Source of the DNA: Escherichia coli
Lineage (GTDB): Bacteria; Pseudomonadota; Gammaproteobacteria; Enterobacterales; Enterobacteriaceae
Assembly: GCF_030384885.1 (NCBI RefSeq)
Contig: NZ_CP128613.1
DNA length: 64,000 bases
Strand: one strand, 5' to 3'
Position numbers and translations under genes: made by a program. Shown here piece after piece: positions 16,664 through 62,392 of the stretch. The stretch's first letter is position 1, and the number at the start of each line of letters is the position of its first letter. Below the pieces are notes generated by a model. The model made no database searches. It saw only the letters and a list, made by a program, of their open reading frames with translations, and was not told where the DNA came from.

Positions 16664-16696
16664 CTGCAAAGAAAATAAGCCAGCATCAGCTGGCTT
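16664..16696 (-). terminator. Putative intrinsic terminator downstream of phoR
   Basis: Stem aagccagc / gctggctt with atca loop (16677-16696), followed on the minus strand by ATTTTCTTTG. Confidence 0.6.
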
Positions 16697-16723
16697 ATGG
16701 CAATAAAAGATGACAAAGGCGGA

Positions 16724-18019
16724 TTATTCGCTGTTTTTGGCAATTAAACGTTCCGGGATAACAAAACTGAAACGCGTACCTTTTCCCACCGTACTCTCAA
16801 TATGCAGGCGACTTTCGTGATGATTCACCGCATGTTTCACGATCGCTAACCCTAATCCGCTACCGCCAGTTTGTCGGGAACGTGCTTTATCAACGCGATA
16901 AAAACGCTCGGTCAGGCGCGGAATATGCTCCGGTGCGATGCCCGGTCCATTATCTTCAACGCTAAATTCGGCACCGTGCGGCACTCGCTGCCAGCGTACG
17001 GTGATATGCGTACCTTCCGGCGTATGATTCACGGCGTTATAAACCAGGTTCGAAATCGCGCTGCGAAGTTGGTCTTCGTTGCCAGACACCTTGAGGTCGT
17101 TATCTATTTCAAAGGTAAATGTCTGTTTTTTCTGACTCAGAGTCTGAGCCTCGCGCTCAACAACGCGCAGCATCATCGGCACATCAACCTTTTCATTGAG
17201 CAACTGCGTCGGCGCGGCTTCTATTTTTGACAGCGTCAGTAACTGCTTCACCAGCCCTTCCATCCGCTGGGTCTGCTCGCGCATGGTGTGCAACGCTTTT
17301 TCACGTACCGCGCCTTCCAGCGGTTGCTCATCCATCATCTCCAGGTAACCCTGTAACACGGTCAATGGCGTACGCAACTCATGGCTCACGTTGGCAAAAA
17401 AGTTACGCCGCGCCCCTTCCAGTTGATGCATTTGCGTGACATCACGCGCCACCATCAGCAACTGTTTGTGGGTATAAGGCATGACGCGAATTTCCAGATG
17501 CCGCCCGCTGTTGAGCACCAGATTAAGCGGGCGAGAAAAATCACGCGTTTTCAGATATTGCGTAAACTCCGGGTAACGCAGCAGGTTAAGGATGTTCTGC
17601 CCGTTATCTTCCGGCCAGCGCAAACCAAGAATCTGTTGCGCCAGACCGTTACACCAGAAAATACCGCCCTCTTCCGTGGTCAGCACCACCGCGTCGGGCA
17701 GCGACTCCGCGCCACTACGAAAGCGTTTAATCAGATTGCCCAGTTCGCGGCGGCGTTTTTTATTTCGCAGCTGCATCTGGTGTAAGCCGTATAGCAGCGG
17801 TTCCCAGCTACCACGCCCCGGTGGCGGGGTCATACTACGATCCACCCACAGCCACCATGAAAGGCGCAATAAATTCCAGAAATGCCAGATAAGCAGTCCC
17901 GTTACCGATGCCAGCAAAAACCAGGGCAGGTAACCAAAAAATGCACCCAGGATGAAAGCCGGGAGGCAACAAAGTAGCAGCTCCAGCACCAGCCTTTTCC
18001 ACGACAGCCGTTCCAGCAC
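16724..18019 (-). CDS. phoR: Phosphate regulon sensor histidine kinase
   Basis: 431-aa ORF with H-box [11 protein letters not shown] and ATPase G-boxes; GTG start (cac 18017-18019). Confidence 0.95.
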
Positions 18020-18076
18020 GTAAGATACTCCAGTTAAGAAATCATAAGCCCTGCTCTGCGTCCGATGAGCAAGGCG

Positions 18077-18766
18077 TTAAAAGCGGGTTGAAAAACGATA
18101 TCCTGTACCGCGTACGGTCTGCACCATGCGGTCATGTCCGCCGGGCTCCAGTGCCTTACGCAGGCGACGAATGTGAACATCGACCGTGCGGTCTTCCACA
18201 TATACGTTGGTTCCCCAGACGTGGTTTAACAGCTGCTCGCGGCTGTACACGCGCTCGGGATGCGTCATAAAAAAGTGCAGCAGTTTAAATTCTGTCGGCC
18301 CCATCTCCAGCGGTTCTTCGCCCGCCATCACCCGGTGAGATGTCGGGTCGAGACTGAGCCCCTGCATCTCGATCACCTCTTCCACCGCCATTGGCGAAAT
18401 ACGGCGCATTACCGCTTTGATTCGCGCCACCAGTTCCTTCGGCGAAAACGGCTTGGTGATATAGTCATCCGCACCGGTTTCAAGGCCGCGCACGCGATCT
18501 TCTTCTTCCCCTCTGGCGGTCAGCATCACCACTGGAATATCCCGGGTCATCGATTCGCGCTTGAGGTGTTTGATGAACTGGATACCGGAGCCGCCAGGTA
18601 ACATCCAGTCAAGGAGAATTAAATCCGGCCAGGGTTCATTCAGTTGATTCACAGCACTGTCATAATCTTCCGCTTCGACCGGCTGAAAGCCATTTTGTTC
18701 GAGCACGAAGCAGACCATTTCGCGAATTGGAGCTTCATCTTCTACGACCAGAATACGTCTCGCCAT
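18077..18766 (-). CDS. phoB: Phosphate regulon response regulator
   Basis: 229-aa [21 protein letters not shown]..., OmpR-family receiver plus winged helix. Confidence 0.96.
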
Positions 18767-18798
18767 GATTTGCCCTGTTGTAATAAATAGGTTGCGAT

Positions 18799-18846
18799 CA
18801 TTAATGCGACGTCATTATGCGTCAGATTTATGACAGATTTATGAAA
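18799..18846 (-). promoter_or_regulatory. Pho box in the phoB promoter
   Basis: Minus strand reads TTTTCATAAATCTGTCATAAATCTGACGCATAATGACGTCGCATTAA, i.e. tandem CTGTCAT-type PhoB half-sites, about 40-80 bp upstream of the phoB ATG. Confidence 0.8.
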
Positions 18847-18955
18847 AGCACGTCGCACATATCTTCAGGTAGTTGATTTCCGTGGCGCAGAAAAAAGCAA
18901 ATGGCACATCTGTTTGGGTATAATCGCGCCCATGCTTTTTCGCCAGGGAATCGTT

Positions 18956-20158
18956 ATGCGCATCCTTCACACCTCAGACTGGCACCTCGGCCAGAACTTC
19001 TACAGTAAAAGCCGCGAAGCTGAACACCAGGCCTTTCTTGACTGGCTGCTGGAAACAGCGCAAACCCATCAGGTGGATGCGATTATTGTTGCCGGTGATG
19101 TTTTCGATACCGGATCACCGCCCAGTTACGCCCGCACGTTATACAACCGTTTTGTTGTCAATTTACAGCAAACGGGCTGTCATCTGGTGGTACTGGCAGG
19201 AAACCATGACTCGGTCGCCACGCTGAATGAATCGCGCGATATCATGGCGTTCCTCAATACTACCGTGGTCGCCAGCGCCGGACATGCGCCGCAAATCTTG
19301 CCTCGTCGCGACGGGACGCCAGGCGCAGTGCTGTGCCCCATTCCTTTTTTACGCCCGCGTGACATTATTACCAGCCAGGCGGGGCTTAACGGTATTGAAA
19401 AACAACAACATTTGCTGGCGGCTATTACCGATTATTACCAACAACATTATGCCGATGCCTGCAAACTGCGCGGCGATCAGCCTCTGCCCATCATCGCCAC
19501 GGGGCATTTAACGACCGTTGGTGCCAGCAAAAGTGACGCCGTGCGTGACATTTATATTGGCACGCTGGACGCCTTCCCGGCACAAAACTTTCCGCCAGCC
19601 GACTACATCGCGCTCGGGCATATTCACCGCGCACAGATTATTGGCGGCATGGAACATGTTCGCTATTGCGGTTCCCCCATTCCACTGAGTTTTGATGAAT
19701 GCGGAAAAAGTAAATATGTCCATCTGGTGACATTTTCAAACGGCAAATTAGAGAGCGTGGAAAACCTGAGCGTGCCGATAACGCAACCGATGGCGGTACT
19801 GAAAGGCGATCTGGCGTCGATTACCGAACAGCTGGAACAGTGGCGCGATGTATCACAGGAACCACCTGTCTGGCTGGATATCGAAATCACTACTGATGAG
19901 TATCTGCATGATATTCAGCGCAAAATCCAGGCATTAACTGAATCACTGCCTGTCGAAGTATTGCTGGTACGCCGCAGCCGTGAACAGCGCGAGCGTGTGT
20001 TAGCCAGCCAACAGCGTGAAACCCTCAGCGAACTCAGCGTCGAAGAGGTGTTTAATCGTCGTCTCGCACTGGAAGAACTGGATGAATCACAGCAGCAACG
20101 TCTGCAACATCTTTTCACCACGACGCTGCAGACCCTCGCCGGAGAACACGAAGCATGA
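18956..20158 (+). CDS. sbcD: SbcCD nuclease, SbcD subunit (Mre11-like)
   Basis: 400 aa from ATG 18956, [13 protein letters not shown]... phosphoesterase motifs; the track ORF starts 14 codons upstream. Confidence 0.94.
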
Positions 20159-26761: not shown

Positions 26762-27217
26762 TCATTCGCTACGGCGGGCAATAATTTTTAGCGCAGCAAT
26801 ATTATGCGTTTTACGCCGTAACTGATCCAACCGTCTCATCCCTATTCGCCTGTCAGCGGCACGCAGAATATTCACTAACCCCCATTTATCGCTGGTAAAT
26901 TGTTTCGTTAACAGCTCCGCTTTTGGGGTATCAATATATTCACGCAATAAATCAGAAATTGAACAAATATCCGTCAGATAAGGATACCAGCAAGTTTCAC
27001 CATGAAAATTACGCACTCCACCATTGCCTGCCATAAAGTCTTTTGGGTAATCCCAGATCACGTCTTTATCCAACGTGATCCAATAACGCGGTAAATCGGT
27101 GCTTCCACCATTTTGGCTGCGCATGGGATAACGGGTACAGTGAATTTGCAGGTTGATCGTTGGCGTCAGTAAGTCATAAATCTCCCTCTGTAACTTGCTC
27201 CAGGGGCGTTGTGTCAT
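26762..27217 (-). CDS. Hypothetical cytoplasmic protein, 151 aa, unassigned family
   Basis: [35 protein letters not shown]...; no signal peptide or TM segment; its ATG (27215-27217) overlaps the stop of the upstream ORF as ATGA. Confidence 0.6.
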
Positions 27218-29493
27218 TGTTTTTCCTCAAGCCGATTACGCGCTTCACTGCGAATTTGCCGCGTTGCCCCGGTTTTCACTAAATCACGTAACTGCGAAAG
27301 ATCGGGCTGATCGACAAATAAGATTAATGATGGATCCTCTTTTAACCACGCCGTTTTCACATCGGCAGCCAACTGTGGATTATTAATAGCCAGCGCCCGA
27401 TCCTGTGACTCAGTCAATGTCGTTAACAAAGAGGCTGGGGTATGTACATTGCGCAACGCCGTCTGCCGCAAATGATCATTGTGACTTTTCAGCAATCCGC
27501 ACCACCATTCATCATCTGATTTATCTTTTATCGTATCCAGCTCCGCAAAAATATCGCTTTCCTCATGATTCCAGCGGTGTAATCCTCTTTCACTTTGTCT
27601 ACGGGTGCTATTTTTCATACTGACAATAGACAACGCCCAGTCGGAGTTAAAACGATACTGTTGATCGAGTTTGTTGATAATTCCGGAGGGTAAATCTTTA
27701 TTATCAAATAACTGGTTTCGCATCCGATAGCGGTATTCAGCAGGTAAATAAACCAGTAAATCGATAGCATTATTAAGCATCTCTTCGTCAATAATACCAT
27801 TATCAATCAGCGCCAGCTGTACTTCGTAGGCTTGCTCTTGATCTTCTTGCCGTTTACTCATCATTAATTTTAAGGTGTGTTGCCATAATTGTTTCTTATA
27901 CTCCAGAGGTAACAATTTATCGCGTGCCAGCTCATACCAGATGCTGGGAATGTCATGCTGATTCAGTAGATAACTAATCACTTCCTTCGAGGTCAGATAA
28001 CGCATGCCGTCACGTAAGTTGTGCACATCTTCTTTTGCCAAAGTCAGTTGACGCGACTCCGGCAAAGCGACCAATAACGCCTTCACGATATTTTTATTTT
28101 CTTTATTATCCAGATACATTTGTTCTGCGATACGTTCAACATCCTCTGTCCTCAGGGTCGCTGACAGTTGGGTGATTTTTAGTTCAGTAAGCGTCCGGGC
28201 TAATGCTTGACGAACTTTCAGCGATTTATCTTTACTCAACAACACCGCTTGTTGTGCGGTTAAATCGGTTCCGGTAATTCTTTCGCGTAACTCCGGATCT
28301 TCGCTATTTATCAATTCATCAACCACTGCAGTTGGAACCAGCCAGGCGTAATCGTAATGGCTGATTAATGTCTTGCGCACACTGAGAAAAGGGCTTTGAC
28401 TTAACGACACAACAATATCAGGAGAAAGATTATCCTGTCTGGCCTGCTCCAGCTGTACGCTCTCGACGGGTACAGACATTAATTTTTTATTCACTTCGGC
28501 GGATATATTGCTGTTTTTAACCAGTCCTCTGGCAACAGCTTCATCTTTAATTAATTCATCGGTAAGCAAATGCATGTGTTGAGCAGGCCAGGACTGCGCC
28601 ATTGATTCACGCGTCTGGTCATCAGGGTGCTGTAACAATTGCAGCATAACGGCGGTTGACAAACTTTCTATATGAGTCAGAAAACGTGCCACCAGTGGAT
28701 CTTCATGCTTTATTTTATCCGCAAGGAAATTATCGAGTTTCCCCGTTTCAATCCATTGTAATTTCTCATTAATTTCAGAAGCAGCTTTATCTCGAAAAAG
28801 AGGTAAACCCTGAACGATATTGTCTACGACGCTATCATAGTCAGGATACGCATTGGAAATATTATCGGTTTCGATTTCACTATGATCATAAAGATTAGGC
28901 GTCACCAGTGAATAGGATTTTTGAATATTCTCGTCCCAGTTATATTCTTCACCGCTTTCATCTTCATTGATATAAAACTCAGCTTTGATGACCTCAAATT
29001 GCGTTGCTTTATCGGAAACAATAATGCCTCGCGCGCTAATTCCTTTCATCACTTCAAAGTTGTGATCATTATAATCAGCATAAACCAAACCTTTCGCTGT
29101 CATCTGACCTTTCACATACGCGAAATCATGATTAATAAAGTTGTCGACAATAACATTACCTAATACAATCAGATGACCATTACCTGACAGATAATCATCA
29201 TAATCGCCGGAAATCGTTAAATTACCGTTCACCACCAGTTTATTTTGATTGCTGAAGTTAGCGGGTAATGATAGGTCACCATTATGATAATACCAGCGGA
29301 TATTATCTTTTAGCATATAAGCAGCTTCCATACTATCGTTGGTTGCCGCTTTAACCACGTTGCGCTCATCTGCCGTCATAAGATGAAAGTCAGAGGTGAT
29401 AAGGTCCTCGCTACTGATCCACTCTATGGCACATGCATTGCCAGTCATAAAAAACACGACCATACAGATGACCAATATATTAATTCTATTCAT
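27214..29493 (-). CDS. Hypothetical exported repeat protein, ~759 aa, unassigned family
   Basis: Long uninterrupted ORF; ATG at 29491-29493 gives [22 protein letters not shown], a Sec-type signal with an AXA-like cleavage site (an in-frame GTG lies 3 codons upstream at 29502). Coding DNA is visibly AT-rich compared with neighbours. Confidence 0.8.
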
Positions 29494-34496: not shown

Positions 34497-34817
34497 TCAG
34501 GCGGCTTTCTTGAGGCAGGCGCTCATAAACTTATTACGATCATCACCTTTCAGAGATTGTTGCGTTGCTTGATTATTACATTCGCGCATCTTTTGCTGCT
34601 GTGGCGTCAAACTTTTTTCACCAGGCGCAGACTTGCTGTTCTTCAGGCAATCACTCATGTAGGTCTTACGAGCATCCCCTTTCAACGCCTGCGCCGTCGC
34701 CTGCTGATTACAGGAGGTCATACGCTGTTGTTGCGGGGTTAAGGTTCTCTCGGCAGCGCCGACGGTGGTTAAAAAAACCAGTCCGAAAAGCAAGGTAACC
34801 AGTAATGTTATTTTCAT
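34497..34817 (-). CDS. psiF: Phosphate-starvation-inducible protein PsiF
   Basis: 106 aa from ATG 34815-34817, MKITLLVTLLFGLVFLTTVGAA signal; duplicated C-x-N-Q-A-T-Q...KGD motif; directly downstream of phoA. Confidence 0.9.
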   Translation of the reverse strand: MKITLLVTLLFGLVFLTTVGAAERTLTPQQQRMTSCNQQATAQALKGDARKTYMSDCLKNSKSAPGEKSLTPQQQKMRECNNQATQQSLKGDDRNKFMSACLKKAA

Positions 34818-34935
34818 AGCACCATCCCTCTTCATGTTTTAACCATGAGCGTTTGCGCCCGTGATCTGCCATTAAGTCTGGTTGCTAACCGCAAAAAAAC
34901 CACCCGGCAGCGAAATTTCACCGCCGGGCGAGGTT

Positions 34936-36351
34936 TTATTTCAGCCCCAGGGCGGCTTTCATGGTGTAGAAGAGATCGGTCTGGTCGGTCAGTCCAACGA
35001 CATTGGCGGCATGTGGGCCATACGCCGCAATACGCAGCTGACTACCGGTATGTTCTTGTGAATCCTCTTCGGAGTTCCCGTAACTCATCACCATCACTGC
35101 GCCATCTTTGGTATTTAGCGCCTGGGTGAGGCCCGGCGCTTTGGTGTCCGGCGCGACAATCTGGCTGGCGTGGGCGTGATCAGCGGTGACTATGACCAGC
35201 GTGTTGCCATCCTTTTTAGCGAATTCCAGCGCCCGTTGTACGGCTTCGTCGAGATCGACCGTCTCGCCAATTTGCCCACAAGGATTCGCCGCGTGATCCT
35301 GTTTATCGATTGATGCACCTTCAACTTGCAGGAAAAAGCCTTTCTCATTTTTACTCAACAATTCAATGGCTTTATCAGTCATCTGCGCCAGGGTCGGTAC
35401 GCTGTCATTACGTTGCGGATTAGGCGTACAGGTAACTGCGGGCTTGTCGATATTGCCGTGGTACGTTGCTTTCGGTCCTTGCCAGCGCACTGGCATATTG
35501 CCGTCAGCAAACAGTCCTAGCAGGGGTTTTTGCTGGTTCGCTTCCGTCACCGCATTCAGTGAGGCAGCATCGCTCACCAACTGATAACCACGCGCCTGCG
35601 CCTGTTCACGCAGCGTTTTTCCCTGCCATTCACCGGCGGTTGCCGTTTCCGCAAAGGTTTTTGCGCCGCCGCCAAGCGTAACATCGGCACGGGCGTTAAG
35701 CAGCTGTTCGGTAATCGATCCTTTTCCGCCTTTTTCCAGCGCGTTACCCGGACATTTTTCACTGGTCGCGCTCGGACCGTAGCATTTGCGCGAAGTCACA
35801 TGCGCCACCAACGCGGCGGGAGTGGCATCCTGCAACTCTGCGGTAGAAACGTTACCGGTCGCCAGCCCTGCGGCTTTTGCCATTTCCAGAATCGTTGGGT
35901 GATCTTTTTCATGAATATCGACACCCAATGCGCCGTTATAGGTTTTGACACCGGTTGACCAGGCAGTTGCTGATGCAGCCGAGTCGGTAACGTAGTCCGG
36001 TTTGCCGGTTTTTTTATTCAGCGCATAGTGAGTGTATTGCCCGGTAAGCGGTAAGGCATCAATACCTTTAAAAAAGCCGCCCGCACCTTCGGCATAATTA
36101 CGTGCGGCAGTAATTTCCGAATCCCCCATCCCATCGCCAATCAGCAAAATAATATTTTTTGCAGGCTTATCGCTAAGAGAATCACGCAGAGCGGCGCTCT
36201 GATCACCCGTTAAGCGGCGAGCACCGCCGGGTGCAGTAATATCGCCCTGAGCAGCCCGGTTTTCCAGAATAGGCATTTCTGGTGTCCGGGCTTTTGTCAC
36301 AGGGGTAAACAGTAACGGTAAGAGTGCCAGTGCAATAGTGCTTTGTTTCAC
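34936..36351 (-). CDS. phoA: Alkaline phosphatase
   Basis: 471 aa from GTG at 36349-36351, [21 protein letters not shown] signal; active-site region [12 protein letters not shown]. Confidence 0.96.
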
Positions 36352-36413
36352 TTTATTTTCTCCATGTACAAATACATTAAAAAATAAAAACAAAGCGACT
36401 ATAAGTCTCAGCC

Positions 36414-36431
36414 GTGACAGCTTTATGACAG
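36414..36431 (-). promoter_or_regulatory. Pho box of the phoA promoter
   Basis: Minus strand reads CTGTCATAAAGCTGTCAC, an 18-bp Pho box, followed by a TATAGT -10 about 60 bp upstream of the phoA GTG. Confidence 0.85.
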
Positions 36432-36451
36432 CTGTTGAAAAGATTACCTTT

Positions 36452-36712
36452 TTACTGACGAGGATGCTTCAATAACTTCTTTACATAATCGCGCAGCAGC
36501 TCCGTATCGTCGTCAGGAATGCTGGCATCGGGCTTTACCTCGTAAAGTGCCCCCTCAACCTGATCAATCAACCGCTGTTGGTCATTTTGCGCCATATTAC
36601 GAAGCATTGCAGTGACGATAATCTCCAGTGCTTCTACCTGCGCGCACAGTTCTTTCGACTCTTCTTCTTTTTGGGCAAGCTTAAATAACAACTCAGCAAT
36701 GAGATTTTTCAT
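36452..36712 (-). CDS. iraP: Anti-adaptor protein IraP
   Basis: 86-aa [35 protein letters not shown]... Confidence 0.9.
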
Positions 36713-37174
36713 GTCTGTATTTCCTTATCCAAAGTATGGAGAAGTTAACATTATGCTTCACAACTTCATAGTGTCTGGAGGTAGTATTTTTATGACGAAT
36801 GAAATACTTTGCGCAAATATTTTTTCCATATTTATCAGCGAAACGTTTCTCTTATTTAAATAAGTAACCATACAAAGTATAGGTTTTTAATTATCAACCT
36901 TTATTATAAGTAAAAGTTATGAAATATATTCTCTTTGCTAACTTATAATTAAGAGAAAAAAACTCACTGCATGGCCATTTAAACCAGGAATAAATTAGCT
37001 TCCCGTTCATCATTTTTGTGATCTTGCGCACATCTTTGAGATAACGCACTTTCTTCACCAGTACGTTGCACACTTTGTCAGTAGAAGATTGCAACATTCT
37101 GTCAGAAGGCCGCGAATCCCCCGTTTTGTCGTGGTAATGTATGCACTTTGTGTTAGACGGGATAGGTTTTCAAG

Positions 37175-38503: not shown

Positions 38504-38762
38504 GGCAGCTCCGTTAACGAAAAATAACATCTTCGCATAATCGATAACTTACGTCTGTGGGGTAGACAGCATTTCCCGTATCGTTAAAAAATTTAACTTA
38601 AAGTTACCGTTTTGTGACTCGTGACAAATATTCCCGCTTCGGGAATATTCCCAACATCAATTTACCATGATTCTGATATTGACAATCTAAATGACCTGTC
38701 AGACTTGCCATAAGCCGCTGGTATGACACCAGAAGAGAAGTAGATGACTTCCGGAGGTTTTT

Positions 38763-51577: not shown

Positions 51578-51879
51578 GATTGTCTGCTCCCCTGTCTTGT
51601 TATGGGAGCAGTATTTCGTTGCTGGTCAGTTTGATAAAGGAATTAAAACGTCTTGTTAAGAACAAAGCGTTTTTAGAAAAAAACTGGCAATGGTTAGCGA
51701 GTTTACGCATTTTGCAGCTTGGGCGAATGTAGCATGCCGATTCACAAACCAGATCAGATGTTCGCTCTCCGGCAAATTATTGCCATTTTGTTACATCCAT
51801 TCCATATCTGTCGCTGGTTGATTGCCAGCGACGCGCCGTGATGCATGATAGGAGAATGAGATAATAAGAGAAGAAAAGT

Positions 51880-52509
51880 ATGATTAGGGTTGTGCTGGTG
51901 GATGACCATGTGGTGGTGCGCTCTGGCTTCGCACAATTACTCTCTCTGGAAGACGATCTGGAGGTCATTGGTCAGTACAGTTGTGCCGCGCAGGCATGGT
52001 CGGCATTAACTCATAATGACGTTAATGTTGCCGTCATTGATATCGCCATGCCGGACGAAAATGGCCTCAGTCTGCTTAAGCGTCTGCGTGCACAAAAACC
52101 GCAATTCCGCGCCATTATTCTTAGCATTTATGACACGCCAACCTTTGTACAAAGCGCTCTGGATGCTGGTGCCAGCGGCTATTTGACCAAACGCTGTGGG
52201 CCGGAAGAGTTAGTGCAGGCGGTGCGCTCGGTCGGGATGGGCGGGCATTATCTCTGCGCCGATGCAATTCGGGCTTTACGCGGCGGCGAGCAACCCGCCC
52301 AGGCGCTGGAAATTCTCACCCCACGAGAACGTGAAGTGTTTGATTTATTAGTCAAAGGCGACAGTGTAAAAGAGATCGCCTTTAAGCTCGAACTCAGCCA
52401 TAAAACGGTACATGTACATCGCGCCAACGTGCTGGGAAAACTGAACTGTCATAGCACCATTGAGCTGGTGCATTTTGCACTCAATCACCATCTGCTGGCG
52501 GGGCATTAA
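51880..52509 (+). CDS. NarL/FixJ-family response regulator, UhpA-like
   Basis: 209-aa ORF MIRVVLVDDHVVVRSGFAQLL... plus C-terminal LuxR helix-turn-helix (KTVHVHRANVLGKL); closely resembles UhpA as I recall it. Confidence 0.85.
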   Translation: MIRVVLVDDHVVVRSGFAQLLSLEDDLEVIGQYSCAAQAWSALTHNDVNVAVIDIAMPDENGLSLLKRLRAQKPQFRAIILSIYDTPTFVQSALDAGASGYLTKRCGPEELVQAVRSVGMGGHYLCADAIRALRGGEQPAQALEILTPREREVFDLLVKGDSVKEIAFKLELSHKTVHVHRANVLGKLNCHSTIELVHFALNHHLLAGH

Positions 52510-54050
52510 TGTCGCGTAACCTTCGTCATTGGGTGATTTCGCTGTTTATTGTGCTGGCCTGGGGAAGCGGCTGGCTGATGTTGTGGACGCTCAGCTTTTA
52601 TCTGACCAATAACGGTCAACAGGCAGTGTTATTTCTGCCGCACGGAGTTTACCTCGCTCTTCTTATTTTGCTCTCTCGCCGTTACTGGCCTGCGTTGGTG
52701 CTCCCCCCTTTGCTGATGATGTTCTGGCTGCACAGCGAGCAACTGTTGAACGGCTATCTCATGCTGGCAACGCCGGTTATTAGCCTGCTTCCTGCCATCC
52801 TTGCACAAAACGTCTGGCACCGTTTTCCACTTTACTGGCAGCGTCTGACGTTGCTGCTAGCCTCAGTAACAGCAGCTTCATTGCTGAATACAGCCATGCT
52901 AACCCCTTTTATGTCAGGCCCAATAATGCTGCCCGGTCTGACCTCATTTACCGGCGGCGTATTGTTGACGCCGTTTGTCTATCTCATCTTTGAGTTTCTG
53001 CGCCAGCAGCATCGCTATCAGCTTCTGAGACTCGATACGCATAATCCCCCCTTGCGAACCTCTTTAATCATCTGGTGTAGCCTATTTTTTATTATTGGTA
53101 TCGGCACCCAGATGGTGTTGTCGCCTGAAATCGAACGCCTGCTGCTGATCGTGGTATTTCTACCCAATGTGGTCATGGCCTGGAAATTTGGCTGGCAAGG
53201 TGGCGTACTCTCGGGGCTTTTGGGCAGCATGATGATCACTATTGCCCGCCAGATTGGCGTGGGCTTTAGTAACCTGGTGGAACTGGAGATTTTTCTCGCA
53301 ACCCAGGCATTGCTGGGAATTGGCCTGGGCATTGCCATCAGTCGCCAGCAACATCTGGCGCTAAACCTGCATCATTACCGTCAGCGACTGGAGGCAGAAC
53401 TGGCAGCACGGCGGGCATTGGCTGAAAAGCTGATCCACACCGAGGAAGACACGCGTAAAAGCCTGGCTCGCGAGCTGCACGACGAAATCGGTCAGAACAT
53501 TACCGCCATTCAGATCCAGTCGCAACTGGTGACGCGGGCACGCGATCCGGCGCAAGTTCATTCCGCAGCTAGCCAAATCAACGAACTCGCCCGCCGCATT
53601 CATCTCTCCACCCGCCAGTTGCTGCGCCAGTTGCGGCCACCCGCGCTTGATGAACTGACATTCCGCGAAGCATTACTTCATCTGATTAATGAATTTGCCT
53701 TTAGTGAACGCGGCATTCATTGCCAGTTTACCTATCAACTAACCACCACGCCAGAAAACGAAACGGTTCGCTTTACACTGTATCGGTTATTGCAGGAGTT
53801 ACTCAATAACGTCTGTAAACACGCCGAAGCCAGCGAAGTGACGATTATTCTGCGCCAGCAGGGAGAGATATTGCACCTGGAGGTCAGCGACAACGGTATA
53901 GGAATCGCCAGCGGGAAAATGACCGGATTTGGCATTCAGGGGATGCGTGAACGCGTCAGTGCCCTGGGCGGCGACTTAACGCTCGAAAAACATAACGGTA
54001 CGCGAGTAATTGTTAACCTGCCCACATTTTTGCAACAAATCGCCGGATAA
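52509..54050 (+). CDS. Sensor histidine kinase, UhpB-like
   Basis: 513-aa ORF: multi-TM N-terminal domain, H-box ELHDEIGQ (HisKA_3 type), C-terminal ATPase; start overlaps the regulator stop (TAATG). Confidence 0.85.
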   Translation: MSRNLRHWVISLFIVLAWGSGWLMLWTLSFYLTNNGQQAVLFLPHGVYLALLILLSRRYWPALVLPPLLMMFWLHSEQLLNGYLMLATPVISLLPAILAQNVWHRFPLYWQRLTLLLASVTAASLLNTAMLTPFMSGPIMLPGLTSFTGGVLLTPFVYLIFEFLRQQHRYQLLRLDTHNPPLRTSLIIWCSLFFIIGIGTQMVLSPEIERLLLIVVFLPNVVMAWKFGWQGGVLSGLLGSMMITIARQIGVGFSNLVELEIFLATQALLGIGLGIAISRQQHLALNLHHYRQRLEAELAARRALAEKLIHTEEDTRKSLARELHDEIGQNITAIQIQSQLVTRARDPAQVHSAASQINELARRIHLSTRQLLRQLRPPALDELTFREALLHLINEFAFSERGIHCQFTYQLTTTPENETVRFTLYRLLQELLNNVCKHAEASEVTIILRQQGEILHLEVSDNGIGIASGKMTGFGIQGMRERVSALGGDLTLEKHNGTRVIVNLPTFLQQIAG

Positions 54051-54122
54051 CCAGGAAAAAGTCTTAGGCATCCCGGATTTTCTCTCATCCTCTTTCACTT
54101 TCATTTTCATATAGTCAGCAAC

Positions 54123-55439
54123 ATGGAGACGACCATGCACGCGCGTTCAGCGAGAGAGATTAATCAATGCTACCGGACATTACGTCCGCGATTGCTGATG
54201 TGCATGATTATTGGCTACGCCGCATTTTATCTGACGCGAAAAAGCGTGAATTACGTCCTTCCGGCGCTGCAAACCGACCTCGGACTGGATAAAGGCGACA
54301 TTGGCCTGCTGGGTTCGCTGTTTTATCTCAGCTACGGATTGTCGAAATTTACCGCCGGACTGTGGCATGACAGCCACGGACAACGCGGTTTTATGGGCAT
54401 CGGCTTGTTCGCCACTGGGCTATTGAACGTGGTGTTTGCCTTTGGCGAATCACTTACGCTTCTGCTTGTGGTCTGGACACTGAACGGATTTTTTCAAGGC
54501 TGGGGGTGGCCACCGTGTGCCCGCTTACTGACCCATTGGTACTCCCGTAATGAACGTGGTTTCTGGTGGGGCTGCTGGAATATGTCGATCAACATTGGCG
54601 GAGCGATTATTCCGCTGATTAGCGCCTTTGCCGCCCACTGGTGGGGCTGGCAGGCCGCGATGCTGACACCGGGGATTATCAGCATGGCATTAGGGATCTG
54701 GTTAACGCTACAGCTTAAAGGCACACCCCAGGAAGAGGGATTACCGACGGTGGGTCAGTGGCGTCACGATCCGCTGGAATTACGTCAGGAACAACAAAGT
54801 CCGCCGATGGGTCTGTGGCAAATGTTGCGCACCACAATGCTGCAAAATCCGATGATCTGGCTGCTGGGTGTCTCTTATGTACTGGTTTATGTGATCCGGA
54901 TTGCGTTAAACGACTGGGGCAATATCTGGCTGACGGAAAGCCACGGCGTCAACCTACTCAGCGCCAACGCCACGGTAATGCTGTTTGAAGTGGGCGGCTT
55001 ACTCGGCGCGTTATTTGCCGGATGGGGTTCGGATTTGCTGTTTAGCGGGCAGCGAGCCCCCATGATTTTGCTGTTTACCCTTGGGTTGATGGTTTCGGTC
55101 GCTGCACTCTGGTTGGCACCGGTTCATCACTATGCCCTTCTGGCTGTGTGCTTTTTTACTGTGGGCTTTTTTGTCTTTGGCCCGCAAATGCTGATTGGAC
55201 TTGCGGCAGTGGAATGTGGACACAAAGCTGCGGCGGGTTCAATCACCGGATTTCTCGGTCTGTTCGCCTATCTCGGTGCGGCGCTGGCAGGCTGGCCGTT
55301 GTCGCTGGTTATCGAACGCTACGGCTGGTCGGGAATGTTCAGTTTACTCTCGGTCGCCGCAGTACTTATGGGTTTACTGCTGATGCCGTTACTGATGGCG
55401 GGCATCACCACCACTCACGCTCGAAGGATAAAACAATGA
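54123..55439 (+). CDS. MFS organophosphate:phosphate antiporter-family protein, UhpC-like
   Basis: 438-aa 12-TM-like ORF; follows the UhpA/UhpB-like pair in uhpABC order. Confidence 0.8.
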   Translation: METTMHARSAREINQCYRTLRPRLLMCMIIGYAAFYLTRKSVNYVLPALQTDLGLDKGDIGLLGSLFYLSYGLSKFTAGLWHDSHGQRGFMGIGLFATGLLNVVFAFGESLTLLLVVWTLNGFFQGWGWPPCARLLTHWYSRNERGFWWGCWNMSINIGGAIIPLISAFAAHWWGWQAAMLTPGIISMALGIWLTLQLKGTPQEEGLPTVGQWRHDPLELRQEQQSPPMGLWQMLRTTMLQNPMIWLLGVSYVLVYVIRIALNDWGNIWLTESHGVNLLSANATVMLFEVGGLLGALFAGWGSDLLFSGQRAPMILLFTLGLMVSVAALWLAPVHHYALLAVCFFTVGFFVFGPQMLIGLAAVECGHKAAAGSITGFLGLFAYLGAALAGWPLSLVIERYGWSGMFSLLSVAAVLMGLLLMPLLMAGITTTHARRIKQ

Positions 55440-56467
55440 AAATGCCCCTTACCTCTACTCTGATTGCTTCTGCCGTTGCGCTGGCAACCTTAACGGGTGC
55501 CGCACAAGCGAAAGGTCGACTGGTGGTCTATTGCAGCGCCACTAATGAAATGTGTGAGACCGAAACCAAAGCGTTTGGCGAGAAATATGATGTGAAAACC
55601 TCGTTTATCCGCAACGGCTCCGGTAGCACCCTGGCAAAAGTCGATGCTGAAAAGAAAAACCCACAGGCTGACGTCTGGTACGGCGGCACCTTAGACCCGC
55701 AGTCGCAGGCCGGCGAGATGGGCCTGTTACAGGCATATAAATCGCCTAACCTTGAACAGATCATGGAAAAATTCCGCGATCCGGCAAAAGTGAAAGGAAA
55801 CCTTTCCTCCGCCGTTTATGTGGGGATCCTCGGGTTTGGCGTCAACACAGAGCGTCTGAAAGAGAAAAACCTGCCTGTGCCGAAGTGCTGGAAAGATCTC
55901 ACCAAACCTGAATATAAAGGCGAAATTCAGATTGCCGATCCACAAAGTTCCGGTACCGCCTACACCGCGCTGGCTACCTTTGCGCAGCTGTGGGGGGAAG
56001 ATCAGGCCTTTGATTATCTAAAACAACTGAACGCCAACGTCTCCCAGTACACCAAATCAGGCATAGCCCCGGCACGTAACGCCGCCCGTGGCGAAACGGC
56101 GATTGGTATTGGCTTCCTGCATGACTACTCGCTGGAAAAAGAACAGGGCGCGCCGCTGGAGTTGATTTCCCCGTGTGAAGGTACGGGCTACGAAATTGGC
56201 GGCGTCAGCATTCTGAAAGGCGCGCGCAACCTCGACAACGCCAAACTGTTTGTGGACTGGGTATTATCAAAAGAAGCTCAGGAACTGGCGTGGAAGAAAG
56301 GGAAGTCTTATCAGATCCTGACCAATACCACCGCCGAAACGTCGCCAAATTCGCTGAAGCTCGACGACCTGAAATTAATCAACTACGACATGGATAAATA
56401 CGGTTCAACTGATGTTCGTAAGGCATTAATTAATAAATGGGTCAGCGAAGTGAAGATGGGTAAATAA
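55436..56467 (+). CDS. afuA: ABC transporter periplasmic substrate-binding protein (AfuA/FbpA family)
   Basis: 343 aa from ATG 55436 (ATGA overlap with upstream stop); signal MKMPLTSTLIASAVALATLTGAAQA; the track ORF 55148.. is an upstream over-extension. Confidence 0.85.
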   Translation: MKMPLTSTLIASAVALATLTGAAQAKGRLVVYCSATNEMCETETKAFGEKYDVKTSFIRNGSGSTLAKVDAEKKNPQADVWYGGTLDPQSQAGEMGLLQAYKSPNLEQIMEKFRDPAKVKGNLSSAVYVGILGFGVNTERLKEKNLPVPKCWKDLTKPEYKGEIQIADPQSSGTAYTALATFAQLWGEDQAFDYLKQLNANVSQYTKSGIAPARNAARGETAIGIGFLHDYSLEKEQGAPLELISPCEGTGYEIGGVSILKGARNLDNAKLFVDWVLSKEAQELAWKKGKSYQILTNTTAETSPNSLKLDDLKLINYDMDKYGSTDVRKALINKWVSEVKMGK

Positions 56468-56535
56468 ACCCGCATTGCGTGCACTTGCCGGGTGCAGCAC
56501 AGACGCCTGCCCCGGCCAACCATACCGGAACTGCT

Positions 56536-58614
56536 ATGTCACAGACACTTGCACTCCATCCCGCGAAAAAGCGGGATGCGATTTTCCTTTGGGTTTTGCT
56601 GGGCTGGCTGGCATTTATCCTGTTGCCGAGCTGGAGTCTCGATTATGGTCTGCTGGAGTCCACGAGTGATGAGATCCTCGAGGCGTACAGCTGGTCGCAT
56701 TTTAATATCAGCTGGCTGTGGTATTTACTCCCGAGTTTGCTGCTGGTTCGCCCGTTTAATGAGGCCAAACGCGAGCAGCGTAGCCGTCATTATTTTGATG
56801 CAGGCTGGGCATTGCTTTGTATAGCGTTTATGGTCATCAGTGCCACCATCGTTGGCCGCGGTCTAGGCTACGCCGCCATCGTGCTGTTTATCGAATTAAG
56901 CGCGATAATGACGCTGGCCTTAACCCGCCTCGAATGGCTGGGTGGCGACCGCTTTGTGATCGGCTCGCTGATTGCGATTGTGGCGCTGATTGGCATTTTT
57001 ATCGTCTGGCCGAGCATCGCCATTTTTATCCCGATGTTCACCAACGACGCGGGAGGGTTCGCCCCACTGGCGTTTATGAATGTGCTCTCGCAGGCACATA
57101 TTGTTCAGGTGATCGTCAACTCCATCGTCTTATCGATAGCGGTGGGTATTGGCTGTACTTTCTTCGGTCTGGTGCTGGCGATATATACCACGCGCATCGC
57201 TAAACGCAGCGCAGTAATCGGCCGCATCTTTTCCATTCTGCCAATTGTCACGCCACCGTTTGTGGTCGGCTTAGGCGTTACGCTCATGATGGGGCGCTCC
57301 GGCTACATAACGGAATTTATGGTGGAGTGGTTTGGGCTGACCAACACCAACTGGCTGTATGGTTTTACCGGGATCTGGCTGGCACAGGTCCTGGCATTTA
57401 CGCCAATGGCTTTTATGATCCTCGATGGGGCCATTAAAACCATTCATCCCTCGCTGGAAGAAGCCTCCTACACCCTGCGCGCCAGCCGCTGGCAAACCTT
57501 TAACGGTGTGTTTGTGCCGTTGTTAAAGCCCGCGCTTGCCAATGCCTTTTTAATCGTCGTGGTACAGTCACTGGCTGACTTCAGTAACCCGCTGGTGCTT
57601 GGCGGCAACTTCGACGTACTGGCGACGCAAATTTACTTCTACATTACCGGCTCGCAGCTGGATTATCAGGCCGCCAGCACCCTTGGCGCTTTCCTGCTGC
57701 TGTTCTCGCTACTGGTGTTCTGCGTCCAGTATATGTGGATTGGTAAACGCTCTTACGTCACGGTTTCCGGAAAGTCCTACCGCGGCGATGTCCAGCCACT
57801 ACCGGTCACCCTGGTGTGGAGCGTGGTCGCCATACTTGCGATATGGATTGCCTTTAACGCCCTGCTCTATGGCAGCATTTTCTACGGCAGCTTCACCGTG
57901 AACTGGGGCGTAGACTACACCCTAACGCTGGATAACTTTATCAAGTTATTTGGTCAGGGGATGAGCGACGGCGCATGGCCTTCACTGTTAGATACCTTGC
58001 TCTACGCCGGGATTGCCGCACCCATTACCGCTATTTTTGGCCTGCTCATCGCCTGGGTGGTGGTGCGCCAACAATTCAAAGGCAAAAAGACCATCGAGTT
58101 CACCACCATGTTGTGCTTTGCCGTACCGGGTACAGTGGCGGGTGTCTCGTATATTCTTGCCTTTAATAGCGCCCCAGTCTATCTCACCGGAACGGCAGCA
58201 ATTGTGATTATCTCGATGGTGATGCGCAACGTTCCGGTGGGTATTCGCGCCGGGATTGCAGGTCTGGGGCAGATCGACAAATCGCTGGATGAAGCCTCAC
58301 TTAGCCTGCGTGCGGGTTCCCTGCGAACCATTACGCACATTTTACTGCCGTTGTTACGCCCAGCTATTCTCTCGGCCCTGATTTACAGCTTTGTGCGGGC
58401 TATCACGACGGTCAGCGCCATCGTCTTTCTCGTCACGCCGGACACACGCGTGGCAACCGCCTACATCCTTAACCGCGTAGAAGACGGCGAATATGGCGTA
58501 GCCATCGCCTACGGTTCGATTCTGATCGTGGTGATGCTGGCGATTATTTTCCTCTTTGACTGGCTGATCGGTGAAGCACGTATTTCCCGTTCTAAAGCCA
58601 AAAACCAGGCGTAA
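56536..58614 (+). CDS. afuB: ABC transporter fused permease (AfuB/FbpB family)
   Basis: 692 aa from ATG 56536 (track's GTG at 56479 is possible); two tandem permease domains. Confidence 0.85.
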
Positions 58615-58625
58615 TGGAGCGCACT

Positions 58626-59672
58626 ATGAGTCAGAAAAATTTTGTGGAACTGCGCAACGTCACTAAACGATTCGGCAGTAATACGGTTATCGACAATATC
58701 AATCTCACCATCCCACAAGGGCAAATGGTGACGCTGCTCGGTCCTTCCGGATGCGGCAAAACCACCATTCTGCGTCTGGTTGCCGGGCTGGAAAAACCGA
58801 GCGAAGGGCAAATTTTTATAGATGGCGAAGATGTCACGCATCGTTCCATTCAGCAACGCGATATCTGCATGGTGTTTCAGTCATACGCTCTGTTCCCACA
58901 TATGTCGCTGGGCGAAAACGTTGGCTATGGGTTGAAAATGCTTGGCGTGTCGCGTAGTGAAGTGAAGCAGCGGGTGAAAGATGCGCTAGCAATGGTGGAT
59001 CTGGAAGGATTCGAAGACCGCTATGTCGACCAGATTTCCGGTGGTCAGCAACAGCGTGTGGCTCTGGCCCGTGCGTTGATCCTTAAGCCTAAAGTGCTGC
59101 TGTTTGATGAGCCGTTAAGTAACCTCGATGCCAACCTGCGTCGCAGCATGCGCGATAAAATCCGCGAGCTGCAAAAGCAATTTAACATCACTTCGCTCTA
59201 TGTGACTCACGATCAAAGTGAAGCTTTCGCGGTGTCCGACACCGTGTTGGTGATGAATAAAGGTCACATCATGCAAATTGGCTCGCCGCAGGATCTCTAT
59301 CGTCAGCCCGCCTCCCGCTTTATGGCAAGTTTTATGGGCGACGCCAACCTGTTCCCGGCGAACTTTAGCGAAGAGTATGTCGATATCTACGGTTATCGCC
59401 TGCCGCGCGCGGCGCATTTCCCGGCGCAAGGTAGCGGCACCGTCGGCGTTCGCCCGGAAGCCATCACCTTAAGCAATCACGGCGAAGAGAGTCAGCGTTG
59501 TGTTATTCGCCATGTCGCCTACATGGGGCCGCAGTACGAAGTGACCGTAGAATGGCATGGTCAGGAGATTTTATTGCAAGTCAACGCCACCCGTTTACAG
59601 CCCGATATTGGTGAACACTATTACCTCGAAATCCATCCTTACGGGATGTTTGTTTTAGCGGATGCGGCATAA
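58626..59672 (+). CDS. afuC: ABC transporter ATP-binding protein (AfuC/FbpC family)
   Basis: 348 aa from ATG 58626, [16 protein letters not shown]...; Walker [10 protein letters not shown], signature [15 protein letters not shown]. Confidence 0.9.
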
Positions 59673-62187: not shown

Positions 62188-62392
62188 ACGCCAGCCGGAT
62201 GCGGCGTGAACGCCTTATCCGCCTACATTTCGCCCATAAACCGTAGGCATGATAAGACGCGCATAGCGTCGCATCAGGCATCTGCGCACAACTGCCGGAT
62301 GCGGCGTGAACGCCTTATCCGGCCTACATTTCGCCCATGAGCCGTAGGCATGATAAGACGCGCAAAGCATCGCATCAGGCATCTGTGCACGG
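62188..62392. repeat. Tandem BIME cluster (two ~100-bp units of paired REP elements)
   Basis: Unit starting 62194 (gccggatgcggcgtgaacgccttatccgcctac...gtaggcatgataagacgcgcatagcgtcgcatcaggc) is repeated from 62294 with a few substitutions. Confidence 0.85.

Follow-up and report, generated by a model that had tools for sequence, protein, structure and literature searches.

Do the Pho box-like motifs upstream of phoB and phoA in this stretch of E. coli DNA serve as PhoB-dependent promoters, and does their proximity to each other, or to a sugar-phosphate transport locus further along, have any regulatory significance? The stretch, referred to here as the window, comprises 64 kb of one strand. An earlier note, made by reading the raw letters, had described both motifs as canonical Pho boxes and had seen in the window a concentration of the Pho regulon, together with a phosphate-linked Uhp-like/Afu locus. 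On the evidence below, this is E. coli chromosomal DNA, and the two sites almost certainly mark the promoters from which PhoB activates phoBR and phoA-psiF. This assignment is based on what was computed here, namely the sequences and positions of the sites, their spacing, the statistics, the identities of the genes, and the agreement, complete or nearly so, with K-12 sites; from the published K-12 experiments, we infer that PhoB binding, PhoB-dependent expression and auto-repression would also occur in this strain. Transcription start sites at both promoters were placed from the positions of the -10 elements.

Genomic setting and gene identities

The window differs from the chromosome of strain 2013C-4282 (NZ_CP027579.1, 2281338-2345337) at 9 positions, none of which falls inside the Pho elements discussed here. 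A 2-kb piece around the phoB site, which is 100% identical to that of 2013C-4282, has matches in 5,424 of 5,426 complete E. coli genomes. The gene order is thiL...brnQ-phoR-phoB / sbcDC...psiF-phoA-iraP...tauDCBA / fusR-like...afuABC-frmRA...mhpT, the reverse of the direction on the E. coli K-12 map. Genes were identified with NCBIfam equivalog models at their curated cut-offs, with coordinates from the RefSeq annotation. The phoBR and phoA-psiF identities read by eye held up, all four proteins scoring above their equivalog cut-offs: PhoB (540 bits, cut-off 471), PhoR (888 bits, cut-off 390), alkaline phosphatase, the phoA product (895 bits, cut-off 540) and PsiF (234 bits, cut-off 165). IraP, encoded next to phoA, also passed (137 bits, cut-off 78). 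The transcription units are as follows.

16724..18766, minus strand: phoB-phoR operon (phoB 18077-18766, phoR 16724-18019), driven by the phoB box; from RefSeq annotation
16675..16698, minus strand: terminator-like hairpin after phoR, with a 10-bp stem and a T-rich tail, 26 nt past the phoR stop codon; from a consensus scan only
34497..36351, minus strand: phoA-psiF (phoA 34936-36351, psiF 34497-34817); from annotation

Judged by its sequence, the hairpin after phoR is the likely end of the phoBR transcript. Three other features of the window are recorded here. Between rdgC and ppnP, at 26762-29493(-), there are genes for a DUF2773 domain protein (759 aa) and an SF0329 family protein (151 aa), and the DUF2773 gene holds two of the nine differences from 2013C-4282. 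The annotation also places a 67-aa "hypothetical protein" between iraP and ddlA (36894-37097, minus strand). The fghA|yaiL spacer carries naRNA4 (RF02564) at 62246-62324(-), scoring 75.8 bits (gathering score, 59.5); it was the sole family above threshold in an Rfam scan of the whole window and is unrelated to the Pho sites.

The phoB and phoA promoters

The elements found at the two promoters and within phoB are listed below.

18830..18847, minus strand: phoB activation Pho box, TTTTCATAAATCTGTCAT; from its sequence, matrix score and identity to a K-12 ChIP-seq-peak site
18815..18825, minus strand: third, degenerate 11-bp unit, CTGACGCATAA, adjoining the box and overlapping the -10; from the repeat register
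18814..18819, minus strand: phoB -10, CATAAT (5/6), 10 bp downstream of the 18-bp box
18803..18831, plus strand: weak PhoB auto-repression site on the strand opposite phoB; exact match to the EMSA oligo of PMC6194859
18647..18664, plus strand: intragenic PhoB site, ATTCACAGCACTGTCATA, 102-119 nt into the phoB coding sequence and antisense to it; identical to K-12 peak 417245
36414..36431, minus strand: phoA Pho box, CTGTCATAAAGCTGTCAC; from its sequence, matrix score and a K-12 counterpart that is a ChIP-seq peak
36398..36403, minus strand: phoA -10, TATAGT (5/6), 10 bp downstream of the box

Read on the minus strand, the interval 18799-18846 is TTTCATAAATCTGTCATAAATCTGACGCATAATGACGTCGCATTAATG. 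The phoB box within it consists of two tandem 11-bp direct-repeat units, TTTTCATAAAT and CTGTCATAAAT (TTTTCAT-AAAT-CTGTCAT-AAAT), the second of which reaches 18826, and it sits in place of the -35 hexamer, oriented toward the gene and with 10 bp to the -10. The earlier note had described tandem CTGTCATAAATCTG units here; a tandem repeat is indeed present, but CTGTCATAAATCTG occurs only once (18823-18836), the upstream unit being TTTTCATAAATCTG (18834-18847), and what is repeated exactly is the 11-mer TCATAAATCTG, twice, at 18823-18844(-). Likewise, the box does lie in the interval 18799-18846 assigned to it, but it is on the minus strand and its 18 bp end at 18847, one base beyond. The third unit adjoins the second on its downstream side; the correspondingly shifted 18-mer (18818-18835) scored 12.34 bits with the PhoB matrix described below, and an extra half-site beside the downstream half of the phoB Pho box has been described (PMC6194859). 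The same study isolated a weaker phoB promoter mutant with CATGAT "at the -10 region."

The phoA box likewise has two tandem repeats (CTGTCAT-AAAG-CTGTCAC), replaces the -35 element, faces its gene and stands 10 bp from the -10. Scans of 18700-19000 and of 36300-36500 found no complete -35/-10 sigma-70 promoter at either locus, the pattern anticipated at Pho promoters, in which the box takes the role of the -35 element.

Compared with K-12, the phoB promoter shows no base change between the start of the box (18847) and the phoB ATG, a stretch that includes the -10 and the repression oligo; the only differences are SNPs farther upstream, outside the box (one at 18850, two at about 18870-18871 and one near sbcD). 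Of 5,424 E. coli genomes, 5,411 (99.8%) carry the core at 18795-18849 unchanged, whereas only 18 do so for the adjoining 56 bp. In K-12, the phoB Pho box was described by Makino (1986, as cited in PMC10294691), and the site identical to the window box is PhoB-bound (ChIP-seq peak 417093, PMC10294691 Table 1). The K-12 phoB RNA-seq value falls from 32,731 to 34 and phoBR is positively regulated by PhoB (PMC10294691).

The box of the K-12 phoA promoter is CTGTCATAAAGTTGTCAC. As in K-12, the window box begins 20 bp past the iraP stop codon, and the 10-bp spacing to the TATAGT -10, the downstream leader and the start codon are all the same. Over 150 bases of promoter, three differ: a T-to-C change at the first base of the second repeat, converting AAGTTGTCAC into AAGCTGTCAC; a C-to-T change in the spacer between the box and the -10; and a T-to-G change 27 bp upstream of the box. 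K-12 ChIP-seq peak 401676 (PMC10294691 Table 1) is thus a site one base different from the window box. Deletion of phoB in K-12 lowers phoA RNA 200-fold, from 310,112 to 1,548, and phoA-psiF is positively PhoB-regulated; the sites upstream of phoB and phoA are both broadly conserved across gammaproteobacteria (PMC10294691).

The change within the phoA box improves its agreement with the CTGTCA consensus. At that matrix position, 29 of the 59 sites have C, more than have any other base, and the window allele scores 20.89 bits versus 19.79 for the K-12 allele, a gain of 1.1 bits. Allele-specific 41-mer searches found the C allele in 616 of the 5,426 complete genomes (11%) and the T allele in 4,771; the exact window 41-mer was present in only 16. 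The C allele is therefore predicted, from the matrix, to be a slightly better PhoB site, and this minority allele might bind PhoB more tightly and change when alkaline phosphatase is induced in the lineages that carry it.

Just after iraP, at 36396-36414(-), the phoA -10 is overlapped by a weak terminator-like hairpin with 6 pairs, of which two are G-T, and the spacer SNP turns a C-A mismatch in its stem into a T-A pair. A strong one, with a 14-bp stem, 9 G-C pairs and a T7 tail, is located between the phoA stop and the psiF start (34900-34931, minus strand). In the phoA|psiF spacer, the matrix found no Pho-box-like site (best score, 3.2 bits). Given this strong hairpin and the PhoB dependence of psiF in K-12, co-regulation of psiF therefore requires read-through.

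On the strand opposite phoB, CGTCA tracts at 18810-18814 and 18820-18824 are 5 bp apart and span the -10, and the published 29-nt EMSA oligo, AATGCGACGTCATTATGCGTCAGATTTAT, is an exact match to 18803-18831(+). For this site, Gao & Stock (2018, PMC6194859) reported a KD of 4.9 uM, and its mutation relieved repression and doubled PhoB levels. By analogy with that work, the 48-bp interval 18799-18846 would be more than a Pho box, namely a full coupled positive and negative autoregulatory switch.

The published work suggests how these elements would operate. When phosphate is scarce, PhoR would phosphorylate PhoB (PMC10294691, PMC6194859, PMC3511308), and PhoB~P would bind as a head-to-tail dimer to two 11-bp direct repeats, each made of a TGTCA-type tract and an A/T-rich stretch. 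With the repeats occupying the -35 position, 10 bp upstream of a good -10, PhoB would recruit sigma-70 RNA polymerase there. At phoB, this should result in positive autoregulation through the Pho box until abundant PhoB~P fills the weak opposite-strand site over the -10, a negative feedback expected to cap phoBR expression; phoA-psiF would be a plain activated target. The third PhoB site, antisense within phoB, is occupied by PhoB in K-12; lacking promoter context, it is probably inert.

The 59 MEME-defined K-12 ChIP-seq sites in Table 1 of PMC10294691, minus the 3 local ones (leaving 56), supplied a PhoB weight matrix, with which both strands of the window were scanned (127,966 positions). 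The phoB box ranked first (18829-18846, minus strand; 21.23 bits, exact p 4.7e-9) and the phoA box second (36413-36430, minus strand; 20.89 bits, exact p 8.1e-9), each with 0.001 matches expected per window. The intragenic site in phoB was third (18647-18664, plus strand; 16.25 bits). The K-12 ChIP-seq study has three peaks in this region (417093, 401676 and 417245), and the three top matches correspond to precisely these. Half-site scores were 7.3 and 10.1 for the phoB box and 10.1 and 8.9 for the phoA box, with a maximum of 10.1. In 300 dinucleotide-preserving shuffles of the window, the mean best score was 15.0 (sd 1.6), and none of the 300 contained two matches of at least 18 bits. A search with the consensus CTGTCATAWAWCTGTCAY, allowing at most 3 mismatches, gave 3 matches versus 0.18 expected: two overlapping registers at phoB, one at phoA and none elsewhere in the window; none of 100 shuffles reached 3. 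Among the best 16 matrix matches, only the phoB and phoA boxes had a 5/6 -10 at canonical spacing, and only these two had a start codon on the same strand 62-63 bp downstream. The presence of canonical boxes upstream of both genes was thus confirmed at the positions read by eye, and the matrix scan proposed as a check placed both, at 21.2 and 20.9 bits, far above the window background.

In intergenic DNA, three further matches of at least 14 bits were found versus 0.2 expected under a zero-order intergenic model. They lie upstream of yaiZ (15.7 bits), in the yajI|tsx spacer (14.1) and in the tauA|fusR spacer (14.0), and were set aside as background or cross-matches, all three being without a -10 at the right spacing. 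Of the intermediate matches in regions common to K-12, none coincides with a K-12 ChIP peak. The yaiZ-upstream match, AGTCACAAAACGGTAACT at 38602-38619(-) in the yaiZ|yaiY spacer, is the window's fourth best and lies 99 bp upstream of yaiZ; its K-12 version scores 11.4 bits, and it has neither a correctly spaced -10 nor a K-12 ChIP peak.

The sugar-phosphate island and alternative readings

The locus that had been regarded as phosphate-linked is an island encoding the following.

51880-59672: NarL/UhpA-type regulator, MASE1 kinase, UhpC-like MFS protein and AfuABC-type ABC transporter

Its regulator (194 bits) and kinase (373 bits) fell below the UhpA (258) and UhpB (408) equivalog cut-offs; the UhpC-like protein passed its subfamily cut-off (589 bits versus 564). 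The island is thus kin to UhpABC by homology only. Its genes are ordered as in O-island 20 of EHEC O157:H7 (fusR Z0463, fusK Z0462, z0461, afuABC), which also lies between tauA and frmR, with 94.2% DNA identity over 8.1 kb; the regulator and the kinase, 96% and 95% identical in amino acids, are orthologues of FusKR. The window thus carries a divergent O-island 20 allele, to which the nearest other genome is 98.1% identical. At least 80% of the island's length is present in 518 of 5,426 genomes, and K-12 has yaiO-yaiX::IS2-yaiP-yaiS at this position. The EHEC orthologues of the regulator and kinase form the fucose sensor FusKR (PMC6199705, PMC4546632), and AfuABC imports glucose-6-P, fructose-6-P and sedoheptulose-7-P (PMC4546632). 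The description of the locus as Uhp-like needed qualification.

Around the island, homology to K-12 extends only about 40 bp upstream from the tauA ATG (tauA upstream region, 51578-51879), and the K-12 tauA promoter region is replaced in the window by island-side sequence, the first 116 bp of which also occur in some island-free genomes. Upstream of the fusR-like gene, a 61-bp block (51770-51830) holds a palindrome, GGCAA-ATTA-TTGCC, which may be the operator of the regulator itself, together with a 14-bit PhoB-like match.

Could this match, TGTAACAAAATGGCAATA at 51778-51795(-) in the tauA|fusR spacer, place the island in the Pho regulon? If it were a weak PhoB site, phosphate starvation would be coupled to the FusKR/AfuABC island in attaching-and-effacing E. 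coli, which the import of sugar phosphates by AfuABC (PMC4546632) would make attractive. Its 14.0 bits are within the range of ChIP-verified sites (median 15.0), only about 0.2 matches of this strength are expected in all the intergenic DNA of the window, and it lies inside the 61-bp block, which is 100% identical to O157:H7 between variable flanks. However, about one match of 14.0 bits is expected by chance window-wide, the second repeat is TGGCAAT rather than TGTCA, and the conservation of the block could be accounted for by the palindrome (GGCAA-N4-TTGCC). As a Pho promoter of the island, the match was rejected: it faces away from fusR, 201 bp from the tauA ATG, and its -10 at the required spacing matches only 2/6. 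The matrix scan of the afuA and UhpA-like upstream regions, also proposed in the earlier note, was extended to every intergenic spacer and to the entire island, both in the window and in O157:H7, and found no credible Pho box, TGTAACAAAATGGCAATA being the best match and in the wrong context; the uhpB-like|uhpC spacer scored 0.5 bits, the afuA|afuB spacer scored -2.8 bits, and afuA overlaps uhpC, leaving no promoter region. Furthermore, the main texts of the EHEC and C. rodentium Pho transcriptome papers do not mention afu, uhp or OI-20 genes. Membership of the island in the Pho regulon through this site is, in our opinion, highly unlikely.

A more basic alternative is that the phoB and phoA motifs themselves arose by chance in A/T-rich intergenic DNA or represent generic sequence of the H-NS type, with no specific PhoB function. 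The sequence preferences of H-NS and PhoB overlap, the phoA region is H-NS-bound in K-12 (PMC10294691), and the rest of the window contains about as many matches of 14-16 bits as chance would produce. However, the following all speak against it: the scores of the two boxes, whose p values are below 1e-8; the canonical -10 spacing at both; their identity or near-identity to K-12 ChIP-seq-peak sites with 200- to 1000-fold PhoB-dependent RNA changes; and the invariance of the phoB core in 99.8% of E. coli genomes. This alternative is effectively refuted, with virtually no probability remaining to it, and we retain the reading of both sites as PhoB-dependent promoters.

The co-location of phoBR and phoA has long been known from the genetic map. 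iraP, whose stop codon 20 bp upstream makes it abut the phoA box, is itself a phosphate-starvation-induced gene; its regulation probably runs through ppGpp rather than PhoB. One could imagine that the closeness of phoBR, phoA-psiF and iraP is functional, a "Pho neighbourhood" in which newly made PhoB would quickly reach a nearby target, and the window's three strongest matrix matches and the three K-12 ChIP peaks do all lie within 17.8 kb. However, phoBR and phoA-psiF, 17.6 kb apart, are separated by 15 unrelated genes and have no promoter or operon in common, and pstS, ugpB, phnC, phoH, amn and yoaI are scattered around the K-12 map. When the nine operons that are PhoB-bound and activated according to Fitzgerald et al. 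were placed at random on the 4.64-Mb K-12 circle, the closest pair fell within 17.6 kb in 24% of the simulations, with roughly one pair expected to be no more than 64 kb apart. The concentration of the Pho regulon noticed earlier is thus real as co-location, but it does not exceed chance (P = 0.24) and was rejected as significant; a functional neighbourhood seems unlikely.

Comparison with known Pho systems

The phoB and phoA Pho boxes are ordinary, already known biology, and no new biology follows from them. This agrees with the earlier description of the sites as established biology and a positive control, their K-12 counterparts being bound by PhoB in ChIP-seq and PhoB-dependent (PMC10294691). 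As such a control, the reading of raw sequence found two regulatory sites that are experimentally validated in K-12, and the matrix separates both cleanly from background. What the plain reading missed was the strand, the opposite-strand auto-repression site and the -10 in the same interval, and the intragenic PhoB site. The frequency of the phoA Pho-box allele and the negative Pho-box result at the OI-20 island are mildly informative by-products.

The intragenic site also has a counterpart among known sites. It is identical to the phoB-internal peak (ChIP score 5) among the inert intragenic PhoB sites of Fitzgerald et al. (2023, PMC10294691), most of which lack promoter context, as this one does. 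The best -10 match downstream of it is 2/6, and because it has no downstream -10, it is probably transcriptionally inert here as well. Unlike most of the intragenic sites in that study, the one within phoB has been retained in roughly half of the gammaproteobacterial species studied, a conservation that may merely reflect constraint on the phoB codons.
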